64,000 bases of DNA from Candidatus Omnitrophota bacterium (GTDB taxonomy: Bacteria; Omnitrophota; Gorgyraeia; Velamenicoccales; JABMQK01), in contig JAQTSV010000001.1 in assembly GCA_028711115.1 (NCBI GenBank), forward strand, positions 70,032 to 134,031. Reading direction: 5' to 3'. The translations under genes and the position numbers were made by a program. Position 1 is the first letter of the stretch, and each line of letters starts with the position of its first letter. Below, piece after piece: positions 2,243-38,144 of this stretch. The notes below the pieces were generated by a model that was not told where the DNA came from, searched no databases, and saw only the letters and a list, made by a program, of their open reading frames with translations.

Positions 2243-4141
2243 CTAACTTCCTTTCTTTGTAAGATTGGTGATTTTCTTGGCAATCTGTTCCGGCAATAAT
2301 CCGTATAAGCCCAACAGCTCTTCTCTTTTACCAAATGTAATAAACTGGCAGGGAAGGCCGAAGTTATACAGCCTGAAAAATTTTCTCTTTGCCGAATCCC
2401 ATCTTTTAAAACTGCTTCTTTCCAAATATTCTAACACGGCGCTGCCAAAACCGCCTTCGATATTTCCTTCTTCTAAAGTAAAGATAAATTCATATTTATT
2501 GGCTAATTGTTCTATGGATAGCTCATCCAGAGGCTTTACGAACCTGGCATTAACCACCTGCGCATTTATATTTTCCCGTAATAACAATTCCCGTGCTTCC
2601 AAGGCAGTTTCCACCATGCTGCCCAGGGCCAATAAAACCACGTCCTTTCCTTCTGCGACGATTTCGGATTTTCCCAGCTCTATTGGGCTGGGCGTTTTTT
2701 CCGATTGCGCTGCTTTATGTTTGGGATATCTTATAGCCAGAGGGCCGTTATAGCTGGCTGCAAAATCAAGCATGAGCTTTAATTCCTCTTTATTCGACGG
2801 CGCCATAACCACCATATTGGGCAGGTTCCTTAAATAAACAATATCCATTATGCCGTGATGCGTGGGACCGTCTTGACCTACCAGCCCTGCCCTGTCTATA
2901 CAAAATACCACGCCTAAATTCTGCAGGCACACCTCTTCAATTATCTGATCAAAAGAGCGCTGCAAAAATGTTGAGTAGACTGCCACAAAAGGTCTGTAGC
3001 CGCCTTTTGCCAGGCCGCCGGCAAAGCCCACTGCATGCCCTTCGGCAATTCCCACGTCGAAAAATCGTTCGGGATATTTCGAGGCGAATAAATCAAGGCC
3101 TGTGCCCTGTGCCATGGCTGCAGTAATGCCTATGATTTTTGGATTGTCTCTGGCCAGTTTTGCCAGGTGCCGGCTAAACACATCGGTGTAGCTTTCTTCT
3201 GTCTCGGCAACCTCCCAATAATAATCTTTTATCTGCATATCGAATTTGGGTGTGCTGTGAAATCTGTCGGGAAATTTCTCTGCCGGCTCATAACCCTTGC
3301 CTTTTGTGGTAACCACATGAAATAAAATCGGCCCTTTTAAAGAAGTGATGTTCTTGAAATTTGATACCAATAATTCTATGTTGTGCCCGTCGAACGGGCC
3401 GAAATAGCGAAAACCCAATTCTTCAAAGAATATGCCCGGGACAATAAGCCCTTTGAGTATTTCCTCAAATCTTTCGGCCAACTTAGCCAAACGCGGCCCA
3501 ATGCGGGGAATGCGCAGCTTCATAAAATTTTCCACCGCTGCCTTTACACGGTTGTATACGGGCAGCGAAATAATTTTATTTACATAATTGCTGAGCGCGC
3601 CCACGCTGGGAGAAATAGACATTTCATTTGTGTTTAATATTACAATCAAATCCGCTTTTATGTGTCCTGCGTTATTCAATGCCTCAAAACACATCCCGCC
3701 GCTTAAAGAACCATCTCCGATAACAGCAACTATCTTTTCTGTGTGATGGCCTAAATCGCGCGCGGCAACCATCCCCAATGCCAAAGATACGCTGGTGGAG
3801 CTGTGGCCCGTGGTAAAAGGGTCGTATGCGGATTCTGTGGCGCAAGGAAAACCGCTTATGCCGCCGAATTGCCTGATTTTATCGAAATCCTTGTTTCTTC
3901 CGGTAAGAATTTTATGTGCATACGCCTGATGGCCTACGTCCCAGATAATTTTATCGCCGGGAGTATTGAGGCAGTAGTGCAAAGTTATGGCCAGTTCTAC
4001 CGCGCCCAGGCTGGAAGCCAGATGCCCGCCGCTTTTGGAAATGACAGATATAATTCTCTGGCGAATCTCCTGGGCCAATTCAGGAAGTTTCTCCAGAGGA
4101 ATATTTTTTAAATCCGCGGGGTTATTTATTTTCTCCAGCAT
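2243..4141 (-). CDS. dxs: 1-deoxy-D-xylulose-5-phosphate synthase
   Basis: 632 aa. Contains GHSSTS and the IGDGSLSGGM ThDP-binding motif, with full-length transketolase-like architecture. Confidence 0.95.
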   Translation of the reverse strand: MLEKINNPADLKNIPLEKLPELAQEIRQRIISVISKSGGHLASSLGAVELAITLHYCLNTPGDKIIWDVGHQAYAHKILTGRNKDFDKIRQFGGISGFPCATESAYDPFTTGHSSTSVSLALGMVAARDLGHHTEKIVAVIGDGSLSGGMCFEALNNAGHIKADLIVILNTNEMSISPSVGALSNYVNKIISLPVYNRVKAAVENFMKLRIPRIGPRLAKLAERFEEILKGLIVPGIFFEELGFRYFGPFDGHNIELLVSNFKNITSLKGPILFHVVTTKGKGYEPAEKFPDRFHSTPKFDMQIKDYYWEVAETEESYTDVFSRHLAKLARDNPKIIGITAAMAQGTGLDLFASKYPERFFDVGIAEGHAVGFAGGLAKGGYRPFVAVYSTFLQRSFDQIIEEVCLQNLGVVFCIDRAGLVGQDGPTHHGIMDIVYLRNLPNMVVMAPSNKEELKLMLDFAASYNGPLAIRYPKHKAAQSEKTPSPIELGKSEIVAEGKDVVLLALGSMVETALEARELLLRENINAQVVNARFVKPLDELSIEQLANKYEFIFTLEEGNIEGGFGSAVLEYLERSSFKRWDSAKRKFFRLYNFGLPCQFITFGKREELLGLYGLLPEQIAKKITNLTKKGS

Positions 4142-31695: not shown

Positions 31696-34477
<2,782 letters not shown>

Positions 34478-34715: not shown

Positions 34716-37163
34716 ATGTATACACAGAATGAAAGAATAGTCCCCATTGGTATTGAAGAGGAAATGAAGAGTTCTTATATCTCTTACGCCATGAGCGTAA
34801 TTGTAGGCAGGGCATTGCCGGATATAAGAGACGGTCTAAAGCCTGTGCACCGCCGGATACTTTATGCCATGCATGAACTAAATCTCGAGCACAGCAATCC
34901 CTATAAAAAGTCTGCGCGTATCGTCGGTGAGGTTTTGGGTAAATACCATCCGCACGGCGACGTCGCTGTTTATGATGCTTTGGTGAGAATGGTGCAGGAT
35001 TTTTCTTTGCGTTATCCTCTGATAGACGGCCAGGGAAACTTCGGTTCCGTTGATGGCGATGCGCCGGCAGCCATGCGTTATACAGAGGCGCGCCTGGCCC
35101 GCGTCAGCGACGAGATGCTGCGCGATATCGAAAAAGAAACGGTAAATTTCAGCCCCAATTTCGATGCCTCATTAAATGAACCGGTATTACTGCCCGCAGT
35201 GTTGCCAAATTTGCTGGTCAATGGTTCCGGCGGTATTGCCGTGGGTATGGCCACCAATATCCCGCCGCATAATTTATCCGAAGTTATAGACGGCATCGTA
35301 TATTTAATTGATAATCCGGAAGCGCAGACCAAAGACCTGATGCATTATATAAAAGGCCCGGATTTTCCCACCGGCGGAATTATCTGCGGCAGGACAGGAA
35401 TCAAAGAGGCCTTTGATACAGGTAAAGGCAAGATAATGCTGCGCGCCAAGGTGAATATTGAGCATCAGAAGTCCGGCAAAGACTGGATAGTGGTTACGGA
35501 AATTCCTTATCAGGTAAATAAAGCCAATCTCATAGAGACCATTGCCAATTTAGTCACGGACAAAAAGATCGACGGCATTACCGATATCCGCGATGAATCC
35601 GACAAAGACGGTATGCGCATTGTCCTGGAATTGCGCCGTGAAGTCGAACCGCAGATAGTCTTGAACTTCCTGTATAAACATACGCAGCTGGAAGTTACCT
35701 ACGGGATAATCACGCTGGCCCTGGTGAATGGCCGGCCGCGCATATTGAGCCTTAAAGAAGTAATGCAGTATTATATCGAGCACCGCAAAGATATTATCCG
35801 TCGCAGGACACGTTTTGATTTAGACCGCGCCCAGAAACGCGCGCATATTCTGGAAGGATTAAAGATTGCCTTAAAGCATCTAGACCAGATTATAAAGACC
35901 ATCCGTTCCTCTAAAAATGCCGTGGAGGCCAAAGATGCGCTGGTCAAGAAATTTGATTTAAGCCCGGAGCAGGCGCAGGCAATTCTAGAAATGCAATTAC
36001 AGCGGCTAACTGCTTTGGAGCGCGATAAAATAGAAGCCGAATACCTGGATTTGATAAAAAAGATTGAATTATATAAATCCATTTTGGCATCGGAGAAAAA
36101 GATAGAAGGCATTATCAAGGAAGAGCTGGCAGAGCTCAAAAAGAAATACGGCGACGAAAGAAAAACGGAAATCATCGGCGAGGTGGAAGATATCGAAATC
36201 GAGGATTTAATCGCCGAGGAAGATATGGTGGTTACTATAAGCAGCGGCGGTTATATCAAACGTCTTTCTGTGAGCGCCTACCGCAAACAGCGGCGCGGCG
36301 GCAAAGGCGTTACCGCCATGGAGACCAAAGAAGAGGATTTTGTAAAACATCTGTTTGTGGCCTCCACAAAAGATTATCTTTTGATTTTCAGCAACCAGGG
36401 AAGAGTCTACTGGCTTAAGGTTTATGAGATTCCCGCGGCAGGACGCCAGGCAAAAGGCAAGGCCATTGTAAATATTTTGGCTATGGGCCAGGGTGAAGAT
36501 ATAAGTTCTGTTATTGCCGTCAAAGAATTTACCGAAGGCAAATTTCTGGTGATGTGCACAAAACAGGGTTTGGTTAAAAAGACAGACCTCCCGGCATTCA
36601 GCAATCCGCGTAAAGGCGGGATTATCGGCATAACCCTGGAGAAAGACGACGCCCTGATTAACACCGCCTTGACCGACGGAGACCAGGAGATTCTTTTGGC
36701 TGCGCGTTCCGGCAAATCCGTAAGATTTAAGGAGAAACAAGTGCGCGATATGGGCCGCCAGGCAAAAGGCGTGCGCGGAATATCGCTGGCCAAAAAAGAC
36801 GAAGTTATCGGTATGGCCATTGTGTCTACCTCAATGAATAAAAGCCCGACTACTTTATTAACCGTAACCGCCGGCGGTTTTGCCAAGAGGACGTCTCTGG
36901 CAGATTACCGCATACAATCGCGCGGCGGCAAAGGCATTATCAACATAAAGACCACCAAGAAAAACGGCGAGGCCATCGGCGTAATGGTCATAGAGCCGCA
37001 GGATGAAATTATGGTGGTTACGCAAAAAGGAATGATTGTGCGCTGCGCAGTCAAGGATATCCGCCAGACTGGCAGAAACACCCAAGGCGTGCGCCTGATA
37101 AATTTAGATAAAGCCGATGCCGCGGCATCCGTGGCAAGAGTTGTGGCCAAGGACGAAGAATAA
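34716..37163 (+). CDS. gyrA: DNA gyrase subunit A
   Basis: Active-site region [16 protein letters not shown], and C-terminal beta-pinwheel repeats. Confidence 0.97.
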
Positions 37164-37173
37164 ATTTGCATAA

Positions 37174-37288
37174 GCCCCCATCGTCTAGCCTGGTCTAGGA
37201 CACGAGCTTTTTCCCGCCGTCGTCCCGCCGCAGGCGGGACTTTGGCGGGATCCCGCAAAGCACGAAGTGCGCATGCGGGACAAGCTTG
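37174..37288 (+). pseudogene. interrupted partial copy of tRNA-Glu (5' 38 nt + 69-nt insert + 8 nt of anticodon loop/stem)
   Basis: 37173-37211 is identical (39/39) to 37536-37574 of the intact tRNA-Glu. After the insert, CAAGCTTG (37281-37288) continues the tRNA sequence. No variable loop, T-arm or acceptor 3' strand follows. Confidence 0.85.
37212..37280 (+). repeat. GC-rich double-hairpin element X1 (inserted in anticodon loop of the partial tRNA-Glu copy)
   Basis: Layout: TCCCGCC-GTCG-[TCCCGCC GCA GGCGGGA]-CTTT-GGCGGGA-[TCCCGC..18 nt..GCGGGA]. Termini TCCCGC / GCGGGA are inverted repeats. Confidence 0.8.
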
Positions 37289-37294
37289 AGATAA

Positions 37295-37561
37295 ATGTAT
37301 TACGTATATGTTTTGAAAAATAATGAAGGTAAGCATTATATAGGTAGTTGCGTAGATTTAGAAACGAGATTAAAAAAACACAATCAGAATAGCGTTAGGT
37401 CCACAAAGCACAAAGGTCCTTTTAAAGTAGTTCATAAAGAAAAATTTGATAGCAGGACTGAAGCGCGGCAGCGAGAGAATCAGCTCAAGAACTATAAAGG
37501 CGGCAGAGCATTTAGGAAACTTATAGAAGAGTTGCAGCCCCCATCGTCTAGCCTGGTCTAG
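37295..37561 (+). CDS. small GIY-YIG (URI-domain) nuclease family protein
   Basis: 88 aa. MYYVYVLKNNEGKHYIGSCVDLETRLKKHN...EARQRENQLKNYKGG carries the GIY/YIG motifs and the conserved Arg/Glu/Asn pattern of COG2827-type proteins. The last 8 codons and the TAG stop lie inside tRNA-Glu. Confidence 0.85.
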   Translation: MYYVYVLKNNEGKHYIGSCVDLETRLKKHNQNSVRSTKHKGPFKVVHKEKFDSRTEARQRENQLKNYKGGRAFRKLIEELQPPSSSLV

Positions 37562-37611
37562 GACACGAGCTTTTCAAGCTTGCGACACCGGTTCGAATCC
37601 GGTTGGGGGCG
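37537..37611 (+). tRNA. tRNA-Glu (anticodon TTC), intact
   Basis: GCCCCCA-TC-GTC..GAC-A-CGAGC-TTTTCAA-GCTTG-CGAC-ACCGG-TTCGAAT-CCGGT-TGGGGGC-G. No encoded CCA. Confidence 0.92.
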
Positions 37612-37617
37612 AAATGT

Positions 37618-37721
37618 AACGGTTCTCCCGCATGTGTCCGCCACTACTACAATGGCGGACTTTTGCGGGATCTCGCCACCTGTAGTTCTAATTATTGTGG
37701 CGGGAGAATCCGGTTGGGGCG
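37618..37721 (+). repeat. second T-arm/acceptor-3'-strand copy of tRNA-Glu, split in the T-loop by element X2 (37626-37705)
   Basis: AACGGTTC | X2 | GAATCCGGTTGGGGCG compares with tRNA CACCGGTTCGAATCCGGTTGGGGGCG. X2 layout: TCCCGCA-TGTG-[TCCGCC..11 nt..GGCGGA]-CTTT-TGCGGGA-[TCTCGCCAC..17 nt..GTGGCGGGA]. Its layout is homologous to X1. Confidence 0.8.
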
Positions 37722-37742
37722 TTTTTAATTTAAGGAGGGATT

Positions 37743-38144
37743 ATGCAGGAACGCAGAAAATATCCCCGTTTTGATGTGGCGGCCAGGGTTGATTTCAAAA
37801 AGATAAACCAGAACAACAATTCCCAGGGTGCGTTTGTAAAAAATGTCAGCGCCGAAGGTTTTTGCTTTGCCTGCCAGGAGGCGTTTAGTCCCGGCGATGT
37901 ATTAGAGGTCAACATAATAGAGAAGAGTATTGACAGCGAGCCCATCTGCGTCAAGGGCGAGGTGGTCTGGTCTTACAAAGACCCGGCAGCCAAAGACAGC
38001 AAAGAAAAGTATTCTTTCCTTATAGGAATAAAAGTTTTAGGTATCCGCAAAACCGACGAGGCGAGGTTCGTTATGCTGTATTGCGAAAGAATGCTTGCCG
38101 AGTTAAAGAGTTTTTTACGCATATCGCACAACCCCATCGCCTAA
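37743..38144 (+). CDS. PilZ domain protein
   Basis: QERRKYPRFDV (RxxxR) and VKNVSAEGFCF (DxSxxG-like). 133 aa. AGGAGGG RBS upstream. Confidence 0.8.
   Translation: MQERRKYPRFDVAARVDFKKINQNNNSQGAFVKNVSAEGFCFACQEAFSPGDVLEVNIIEKSIDSEPICVKGEVVWSYKDPAAKDSKEKYSFLIGIKVLGIRKTDEARFVMLYCERMLAELKSFLRISHNPIA

Follow-up and report, generated by a model that had tools for sequence, protein, structure and literature searches.

Integrase-mediated genomic islands regenerate tRNA genes by partial duplication (PMC9897764), and SegB of phages T4 and T6, a free-standing GIY-YIG homing endonuclease encoded among tRNA genes, cuts the DNA of tRNA genes, occurs preferentially next to tRNAs of many isotypes and drives segmental tandem amplification, for which the tRNA 5′ region and the segB 3′ end supply the microhomology (PMC2330249; PMC13096335). 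Here we describe a locus of a Candidatus Omnitrophota bacterium, in a 64-kb stretch of contig JAQTSV010000001.1 (hereafter the window), in which the gene for an 88-aa stand-alone GIY-YIG nuclease runs into an intact tRNA-Glu(UUC) gene, the two being enclosed by pieces of tRNA-Glu sequence that are interrupted by GC-rich hairpins. We consider this locus to be probably, though with real room for doubt, one copy of a miniature homing-type or transposon-like selfish element that resides in tRNA genes and restores them through partial duplication.

By analogy, SegB is the closest precedent: the junction of open reading frame (ORF) into tRNA and the tandem arrays found at two of our comparison loci (L038 and L064; L-numbers label the genome or metagenome contigs compared here) look like an outcome of the same kind. 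SegB, of ~220 aa and with DNA-binding modules, is phage-encoded, whereas the window protein is a UPF0213/Slx1-like catalytic domain of 88 aa encoded on cellular chromosomes; in addition, SegB loci are not described as nested in split tRNAs or as carrying hairpin-interrupted tRNA pieces. With integrase islands and prophages, the locus shares the restoration of the tRNA through partial duplication, but its unit lacks a tyrosine/serine recombinase and measures ~0.3-0.4 kb, compared with 5-100 kb for islands, and here both 5′ and 3′ parts of the tRNA are duplicated, the spare copies carrying GC hairpins.

All the features of the locus lie on the + strand. The intact tRNA-Glu(UUC), at 37537-37611, is recognized by ARAGORN and by the Rfam tRNA model (59.5 bits, gathering score 29), has no hairpin insert and is presumably functional. 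Upstream of it, the outer 5′ piece (37173-37211) consists of tRNA nt 1-38 (canonical positions 1-35) preceded by one flanking base; it agrees throughout with the intact gene and so forms a direct repeat of 39/39 with 37536-37574. This copy breaks off after GCTTTT, between anticodon bases 35 and 36, where there is a double-hairpin element of 69 nt and 71% GC (element 1, 37212-37280). Its two hairpins (37212-37250 and 37251-37280) have the basal stems TCCCGCC/GGCGGGA and TCCCGCA/TGCGGGA, and the element folds with -48.9 kcal/mol (z -6.0). Read from the sequence, the outer tRNA copy then resumes with CAAGCTTG (37281-37288; canonical 36-43); the 6 nt after CAAGCTTG, AGATAA, are a weak match to the tRNA variable region, and the equivalent outer copy in L003 reaches ~position 48. 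The ORF follows at 37295-37561 (PF01541; UPF0213/YhbQ/Slx1-like branch). Its final 25 nt, TAG included, are tRNA nt 1-25, so that its stop codon lies in the D arm of the intact tRNA.

On the other side, 6 nt past the end of the intact tRNA, comes the first part of the outer 3′ piece, AACGGTTC (37618-37625; canonical 49-56, i.e. the T-stem 5′ strand plus TTC, with one substitution), which has counterparts in L001, L003, L012, L112, L141 and L146. It is followed, at T-loop position 56/57, by a second double-hairpin element of 80 nt (element 2, 37626-37705; hairpins 37626-37670 and 37671-37705; -44.6 kcal/mol, z -8.1), which has 20 nt in common with element 1 at 90% identity. The second part, GAATCCGGTTGGGGCG (37706-37721; canonical 57-73 with one G missing, by sequence reading), forms a 14/14 repeat with 37595-37608. 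Apart from one substitution and a missing G, AACGGTTC and GAATCCGGTTGGGGCG jointly make up tRNA 49-73, broken at 56/57. The outer pieces therefore seem better read as one disrupted tRNA-Glu (1-48 ... 49-73) lying around the ORF and the intact tRNA. It would be interrupted three times, by a hairpin module at 35/36, by the ORF with a complete tRNA at ~48/49 and by another hairpin module at 56/57.

An earlier note, made from the window alone, had already recognized the intact tRNA, the upstream 39/39 repeat, the break after TTTT with its 69-nt GC-rich insert, the 8-nt resumption, the 88-codon ORF, and a third piece, a diverged T-arm/acceptor copy split in its T loop by a related 80-nt insert. All of these stand, with one small correction: the tRNA-derived tail of the ORF, counted there as eight codons, comprises seven full codons plus the third base of a Gln codon. 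The note's unit of 363 bp bounded by the 39-bp repeats proved too simple, the outer disrupted tRNA enclosing the intact tRNA as well as the ORF.

No second copy of the ORF or of the inserts was found within the window, and the double-hairpin signature has no further match there (0 matches expected by chance). Between the tRNA repeats, the GIY-YIG gene is the only family-matched ORF of at least 40 aa, and the unit has no tyrosine or serine recombinase. Searched against Rfam at E ≤ 10, the locus yields tRNAs only, with no intron, ribozyme or small-RNA family; a promoter and terminator scan of its + strand gave nothing above shuffled background, and no promoter or Shine-Dalgarno sequence of its own is visible for the ORF.

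The same layout is present in at least 12 independent Omnitrophota assemblies, which excludes an assembly artefact, a possibility the earlier note had left for checking. In all the loci read (L001, L003/L005, L004/L006, L007-L014 and L020), a 5′ piece of tRNA-Glu, whose anticodon and/or D loop holds a double hairpin, is followed by an ORF of ~85 aa and an intact tRNA-Glu(UUC), and often by hairpin-bearing 3′ pieces (one to three of them) or longer partial copies. One of these loci, L011, belongs to a complete genome, that of Candidatus Velamenicoccus archaeovorus. Homologues of the ORF in other Omnitrophota assemblies are 55-76% identical, and 17 of the 21 close homologues end in a tail encoded by tRNA-Glu, either ...PSSSL[VAD] or ...P-IV, these being two reading frames of the tRNA 5′ end. 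The ratio of non-synonymous to synonymous substitution rates (dN/dS) is 0.07-0.18, with synonymous sites near or beyond saturation, and the ORF is under purifying selection.

The outer 5′ piece is also found in L001, L004/L006, L011, L013 and others, and it matches each genome's own tRNA variant, following lineage-specific differences in the D loop (GGTCT vs GGACT) and in the anticodon stem (CACGAGC/GCTTG vs CAAGAGC/GCTCT vs CATAAGC). Since the 5′ piece equals the tRNA of its own genome in spite of saturated divergence, the spare pieces are homogenized rather than drifting as pseudogenes; they are duplications that follow the variants of the resident tRNA and not, as the earlier note had allowed, independently diverged tRNA genes. 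In L012, by contrast with the inner tRNA (GACCCCA/TGGGGTC), the outer pieces pair with one another (GACCCTG on the 5′ side, CAGGGTC on the 3′ side), and the outer pieces of L007, L009 and L112 are likewise discordant with the inner gene, from which it follows that either the inner gene or the pieces derive from another lineage.

These data bear on a purely local history, namely a tandem duplication and decay of tRNA-Glu around a vertically inherited small gene, with nothing mobile. The conservation of the site beside gyrA in several species would agree with it, and an identical 5′ piece is what gene conversion between tandem copies would give. The foreign-allele pieces in L012 and L112 do not fit, nor do the patchy distribution among relatives, the hairpin motifs common to multiple loci, the same arrangement at unrelated tRNAs and in unrelated phyla and the duplicates in L073 and L074 at two different tRNA genes, which are described below. 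We regard such a history as very improbable, the least probable of the explanations weighed here.

Two further observations concern these relatives. A second subfamily of T-loop inserts occurs at L001 (4388-4468 and 4566-4646) and at L008, L010, L020, L006, L141 and L146, with an ORF nearby or not; its long second hairpin reads (T/C)AATTC(C)GGC...GCCGTCATTAA, and the inner stem of ~10 bp varies between genomes by compensatory substitutions. At L003 4553-6270 (L005 3553-5270), more hairpin-bearing tRNA-Glu fragments are found further downstream, as far as 2 kb from the main cassette, and bracket a Bro-N/KilAC-like ORF, so the tRNA-Glu site gathers other cargo too.

Metagenome contigs scanned with the gyrA C-terminus gave 80 related loci, and in 77 of them tRNA-Glu(UUC) directly follows the gyrA stop, indicating that this adjacency is ancestral. 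About 45 of the 80 are clean empty sites, in which the tRNA lies 7-70 nt past the gyrA stop without fragments or hairpins; the tRNA of one of them, L093, differs by one base from that of the window. In ~14, gyrA and the tRNA are separated by the GIY-YIG ORF, which in every case is accompanied by a 5′ piece bearing a hairpin. Some 15 others (L112, L141, L146 and L098 among them) have no ORF and a hairpin-split 3′ piece after the tRNA. L134 and L135 have kept the 5′ piece and hairpin and lost the ORF, L134 retaining a stretch that resembles the ORF tail, and only the last 26 GIY-YIG codons are left in L100. Occupied loci are patchy among the nearest gyrA relatives. The gyrA-tRNA-Glu position hence combines presence and absence at an orthologous site with degenerate copies, as in a homing gene. 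As read from these contigs, the empty, occupied and decayed states are the pattern of invasion, decay and loss expected of a homing-type selfish gene. At L100 3180-3720, the place of the N-terminal part of the ORF is taken by a small two-gene module whose translations, by eye, look like an AbrB/MazE-type antitoxin and a toxin.

The association recurs well outside Omnitrophota. Species-representative genomes were scanned with a protein alignment, at least 517 of the 600 candidate stretches were confirmed, and the best 80 loci were analysed; they belong to Omnitrophota, Patescibacteria, Bacteroidota, Planctomycetota, Chlorobiota, Gammaproteobacteria and others. A same-strand tRNA adjoins the ORF in 55 of these best 80: the tRNA starts between -45 and +60 nt from the ORF stop in 40 loci, ends 3-160 nt before the ORF start in 18, and does both in 3. 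For a random gene and ordinary tRNA gene densities, a rough yardstick for such adjacency is well under 1%. The adjacent tRNAs represent ~16 isoacceptor identities, and all 55 have the orientation of the ORF. Exact partial copies of the adjacent tRNA bracket the ORF in 47 loci, such that a tRNA lying downstream comes with a copy of its 5′ part upstream of the ORF, and a tRNA lying upstream with a copy of its 3′ part downstream. Thus the homologous small GIY-YIG genes are overwhelmingly tRNA-adjacent and their flanks tRNA-derived, rather than sitting in random contexts.

In the 14 loci read, the D loop, anticodon arm or T loop of the spare copy contains, or is replaced by, a hairpin that is short and rich in GC, of the form (T)CC(C)GCC-loop-GGCGG(G)A or related, and the working tRNA never has one. 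By a strict automatic count, 52 of 111 fragments have a GC hairpin directly at their internal break, compared with 2.9% of random positions. The insertion sites themselves recur: Omnitrophota (L003 included), Bacteroidales (L038), Patescibacteria (L019) and unclassified metagenome-assembled genomes (MAGs; L036, L064) share the T-loop site GGTTC^RAATCC, and the 35/36 site is used in both tRNA-Glu and tRNA-Ser (L016).

Tandem arrays were observed at L038, L064, L021 and L043. At L038 (2897-4765), tRNA-Arg(CCU) is followed by five tandem units of ~360 bp, each made of a GIY-YIG ORF and a tRNA 3′ piece whose T loop is split by a 63-nt hairpin, some of the ORFs being frameshifted or truncated. L073 and L074, from one MAG, carry after tRNA-Leu and tRNA-Pro a common 345-bp unit (2949-3293 in both) that is 97% identical and begins right after the discriminator base; such near-identical units at two tRNAs indicate a recent movement of the element between different tRNA genes. 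This Patescibacteria variant (L073, L074 and L069) has 18-bp inverted ends, CCCCCACACTAACTTTCA / TGAAAGTTAGTGTGGGGG, of the motif class CCCCCACAC, after which come a 4-nt CCGA duplicate, equal to the end of tRNA-Pro, and a partial left end, together forming a terminal hairpin; at L069 2800-3290, an ORF-less mini copy precedes a full copy. The window cassette is without terminal inverted repeats, and its hairpin modules, two copies in 64 kb, are internally palindromic. Runs of N lie inside the arrays of ORFs and tRNA fragments at L006 (3503-3602), L021 (3590-3689) and L043 (3396-3494), and in 14 of the 80 genome loci the ORF is at most ~200 nt from a contig end; these repeats evidently break or collapse short-read assemblies.

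An older mobile history could also be considered, in which the tRNA pieces are attachment-site scars of lost integrase islands in tRNA-Glu, and the GIY-YIG ORF and the hairpins came later, and independently, to a recombination hotspot. Classical integrase sublocations (Williams 2002, as cited in PMC9897764) are indeed matched by the 3′ pieces (49-73) and by the break in the anticodon loop. Tandem 3′ pieces also lie downstream of the tRNA in ORF-less loci, the region of the Bro-like ORF in L003/L005 is bounded by tRNA-Glu fragments, and toxin-antitoxin-like genes stand at the site in L100. Against it, no integrase is found in or near the window locus, the units are only 100-400 bp, a 5′ piece upstream of the tRNA is not the product of a 3′-targeting integrase, and coincidence is inadequate to explain the combination of ORF, partial copy and hairpin at ~16 tRNA identities in many phyla. 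We find this account highly unlikely.

Taken as comparative sequence evidence, these observations support well a mobile or recently mobile selfish cassette whose insertion into a tRNA is compensated by tRNA duplication: the tRNA would stay functional because the insertion brings a duplicate of the tRNA or of its missing part. An integrase-less small GIY-YIG element of this kind, targeting tRNA and keeping a functional copy by partial duplication, was what the earlier note had put forward, and the comparative tests are in its favour.

The hairpin inserts were further characterized from 27 double-hairpin modules of the Omnitrophota type, collected from D, anticodon and T loops. The inserts that the note had described are present as stated, and they are not arbitrary: they form one conserved family with compensatory changes. 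Each module has two hairpins of ~29-45 nt with a 7-bp basal stem YCCCGNN/NNCGGGR, and its centre, where GGCGGGA meets TCCCGCC, is itself palindromic. In an alignment anchored at the hairpin ends, which favours structure, 98.4% of cells are paired and 8 of the 14 pairs are changed on both sides (31 cells); none of 500 shuffles reaches the observed value, no slid register comes close, and the compensatory changes from CG to AU or UA (positions 1, 6 and 7) can be seen directly in the unaligned sequences. The two DNA strands fold equally (mean difference -0.56 ± 3.9 kcal/mol; G-U pairs 5.9% vs 5.7%). This lack of strand bias favours a DNA-level palindrome, either a cruciform or hairpin or a dimeric binding site, over a strand-specific RNA. 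Rfam at its gathering threshold reports tRNAs only in 16 related loci.

Among the fetched loci, the module signature is confined to tRNA-Glu, with L095 as the sole exception. There, at 395-497, a module lies between gyrB and gyrA and is followed by a diverged duplicate of ~38 nt of the gyrB 3′ end, an arrangement which suggests that modules may insert together with a duplication of the target's end. What looks like a second hairpin class common to several phyla is the perfect 20-bp palindrome CCTGCCTGCCGGCAGGCAGG, which takes the part of the hairpin in the spare tRNA copy beside small GIY-YIG genes of Bacteroidota and Chlorobiota. Its sites are L051 2949-2968 (Zunongwangia pacifica), L053 2952-2971, L003 3219-3238 / L005 2219-2238 and L136 ~601-616; it lies near the cassette in one Omnitrophota genome, has a variant in Patescibacteria (L069 ~3284-3303) and is absent from the window.

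The properties of the modules also bear on an RNA-level explanation, according to which the hairpin-bearing tRNA-like pieces are processing or stability signals, or decoys, in a gyrA-ORF-tRNA transcript, and the protein has a host function tied to tRNA or to the structure of nucleic acids, e.g. repair at a heavily transcribed tRNA gene, a toxin/antitoxin-like role or defence. Such a module would account for the co-orientation of all 55 adjacent tRNAs, for an ORF that has no visible promoter or Shine-Dalgarno sequence and stops inside the tRNA, for the compensatory changes in the stems and for the purifying selection on the ORF and its persistence at the site across species; many loci, moreover, swap a tRNA arm for a hairpin of similar size, which would keep a cloverleaf-like shape. 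The hairpins, however, are DNA-symmetric, with no strand bias in stability or G-U content, most spare pieces miss half the tRNA and cannot fold as one, and no Rfam family matches. Most close relatives moreover do without both ORF and pieces, and there are ORF-less and truncated remnants as well as tandem arrays and near-identical copies at different tRNAs of one genome. We judge this explanation unlikely.

The protein itself matches PF01541 with E 1e-16 and 61 bits (cutoff 22.6), the Pfam domain covering residues 1-67 of 88, and Y15, G17, R25, H29, N30 and E61 are invariant in 21 homologues. This catalytic-domain match and the conserved positions place it in the GIY-YIG superfamily, and both profile and fold assign it to the UPF0213/YhbQ-like branch (COG2827). 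Profile comparison with the PDB gives 1ZG2 (E 3.6e-15), 1YWL (7.8e-10), an SLX1 homologue (5e-4) and, weakly, I-TevI. The AlphaFold (AF2) model, with a mean predicted local distance difference test (pLDDT) score of 81.8, is one compact beta-beta-alpha-beta-alpha-alpha domain with the tRNA-encoded tail predicted as disordered. Foldseek ranks 1ZG2 and 1YWL first, then Slx1 (7WME, 6SEH and 7CQ4; Slx1-Slx4 on branched DNA) and the UvrC N-terminal domain, so that UPF0213/YhbQ and the Slx1 nuclease domain are the best matches to the window protein in both sequence and fold. Slx1, the best-characterized relative and a structure-specific nuclease, cuts branched and stem-loop DNA, which would fit a structure-directed action at hairpins or cloverleaf DNA; it partners Slx4 and has a RING/PHD domain. 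To our knowledge, UPF0213 proteins have no established function, and we know of no link of either UPF0213 or Slx1 to tRNA genes or mobility.

The family comprises 4,765 clusters at 50% identity (E ≤ 1e-10), nearly all of 80-130 aa. Many predictions of 100-130 aa have the conserved MYYVY start at residue 20-55; these longer members are probably gene calls extended upstream through the hairpin and tRNA-fragment region, not true N-terminal domains. Phage occurrence is rare, with 9 weak matches in 50,697 phage records and 7 weak ones in IMG/VR, and no SegB similarity was detected in the phage records. A phage origin was rejected on the strength of these few weak matches, the element being neither phage-borne nor SegB-like.

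As to mechanism, the nuclease may break tRNA-gene DNA, plausibly at loop-coding positions in hairpin or cloverleaf form, and it would probably read DNA secondary structure (hairpin or cloverleaf loops) instead of a long sequence. Repair of the break from an occupied allele or an element copy, by way of tRNA homology, would then install the ORF and leave a partial duplication, and unequal recombination between the repeats could produce tandem arrays or delete the element precisely. The hairpin modules may be cis-sites of the nuclease, or small non-autonomous passengers able to persist only where a tRNA copy is dispensable. Co-oriented with the tRNA and without a visible promoter of its own, the ORF is probably transcribed together with it. 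Three insertion chemistries were considered: staggered nicks that leave a long target-site duplication, a circle that carries a hairpin-bearing tRNA copy and integrates in the Campbell manner, and a composite formed by two hairpin modules. Each accounts for some loci, and none for all the junctions.

In a bolder form, which we regard as possible though doubtful, the Slx1-like GIY-YIG domain and the GC palindromic hairpins would constitute mobile DNA of a new class, guided by structure. The nuclease would recognize the extruded or single-stranded shape of the tRNA gene or module and cut the loops at 13/14, 35/36 and 56/57, and copy-repair would install the cassette, swapping a tRNA arm for the element's hairpin. 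One 85-aa enzyme could then parasitize any bacterial tRNA gene with neither a sequence-reading domain nor an integrase.

Several points weigh against a selfish, homing-type element. Cleavage, target and mobility are all deduced from comparative anatomy, and the positions of the junctions (ORF/tRNA, piece ends, hairpin sites) vary by lineage, so that no single insertion chemistry fits all. Neither Pfam nor the structural model shows a DNA-binding domain of the I-TevI/Seg type; together with the YhbQ/Slx1-like branch, this means that a classical sequence-specific homing enzyme is not assured. No tRNA-Glu position discriminates occupied from empty loci and no 'immune' substitution was seen, which leaves the avoidance of self-cleavage without an explanation. 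Empty sites, which the earlier note had proposed to look for, do exist in relatives at the gyrA-tRNA-Glu position, with synteny at one end only (gyrA and tRNA), and no relative with an empty site and both flanks conserved was found. The persistence of the element at one site across species with saturated synonymous divergence could instead reflect a domesticated function. Lastly, modules also occur without a nearby ORF (L112, L141, L146) and once outside a tRNA (L095), and their link with the nuclease could be indirect. Nevertheless, the RNA module, the integrase scars and the local duplication each fit fewer observations than does a miniature selfish element of tRNA genes.

Other described hairpins and inserts resemble parts of the cassette. 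Mitochondrial repetitive hairpin elements (RHEs) are short, GC-rich, subject to compensatory changes, apparently mobile and tolerated at non-essential positions (PMC2800124). As short GC-rich single or double hairpins, the modules are akin to fungal mitochondrial double-hairpin elements (DHEs), yeast GC clusters, the RHEs of sponges and the bacterial repetitive extragenic palindromes (REPs) with their associated tyrosine transposases (RAYTs). REP doublets flank their RAYT transposase gene, and in the mitochondrial DNA of Allomyces a GIY-YIG ORF is inserted at the atp6 end together with a duplicated gene end. The modules described here differ in being found almost only in redundant tRNA pieces (at 13/14, 35/36 and 56/57) instead of genome-wide, and, unlike in REP/RAYT systems, no HUH/RAYT transposase is present and the link of module to nuclease is circumstantial. 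The anticodon- and T-loop positions recall tRNA introns, whether bacterial group I or archaeal bulge-helix-bulge introns (position 56/57 included), but in many loci the inserts replace tRNA nucleotides instead of interrupting them. An intron was rejected, the inserts being of 57-80 nt, present only in incomplete copies, and without a group I core or an Rfam match.

We found in the literature, whose searchable full text is incomplete, no description of small GIY-YIG/UPF0213 genes nested in bacterial tRNA genes, nor of hairpin-interrupted tRNA fragments. The earlier note had taken a tRNA-targeting GIY-YIG mini-element with a tRNA 5′ half to be, as far as its author knew, undescribed; this holds for the cellular class, for which we found no description, and not for the phage association of GIY-YIG genes with tRNAs, known from SegB (PMC2330249; PMC13096335). 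What appears to be new, in the sense that we did not find it described, is the combination of a cellular, integrase-less cassette, a UPF0213/Slx1-like nuclease of ~85 aa, nesting in a split tRNA, conserved hairpins that replace tRNA arms and a distribution over many phyla. The comparisons point to a small selfish element widespread across bacterial phyla. If this is correct, thousands of 'hypothetical GIY-YIG/UPF0213' genes would be explained, the uncharacterized UPF0213/YhbQ family would gain a first testable activity and substrate, and many partial tRNA genes, tRNA-linked tandem repeats and breaks in MAG contigs would be accounted for. Among the nuclease-only selfish elements known from cellular genomes, these would be the smallest, specialized on tRNA genes, and the story of SegB and tRNAs would reach the bacterial chromosomes of many phyla, Patescibacteria, Bacteroidota and Omnitrophota included. 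A compact nuclease locating tRNA genes by DNA shape would be interesting for its mechanism and possibly for practical use, and cultured carriers exist, e.g. Zunongwangia pacifica (L051).

Around the cassette, the window has gyrA on the left (815-aa ORF, 34716-37163, + strand), the ancestral neighbour of tRNA-Glu in the clade, and a PilZ-domain gene on the right (37743-38144, + strand; PF07238, E 7e-11), together with a radical SAM gene and a cation-efflux gene. The PilZ/radical-SAM right flank is common to the window and L001 only, and L001 is occupied. The GyrB of the window (gyrB, 31976-34477) bears a highly charged, low-complexity insertion of ~90 residues, rich in Lys, Glu and Asp, encoded at 33700-34100.

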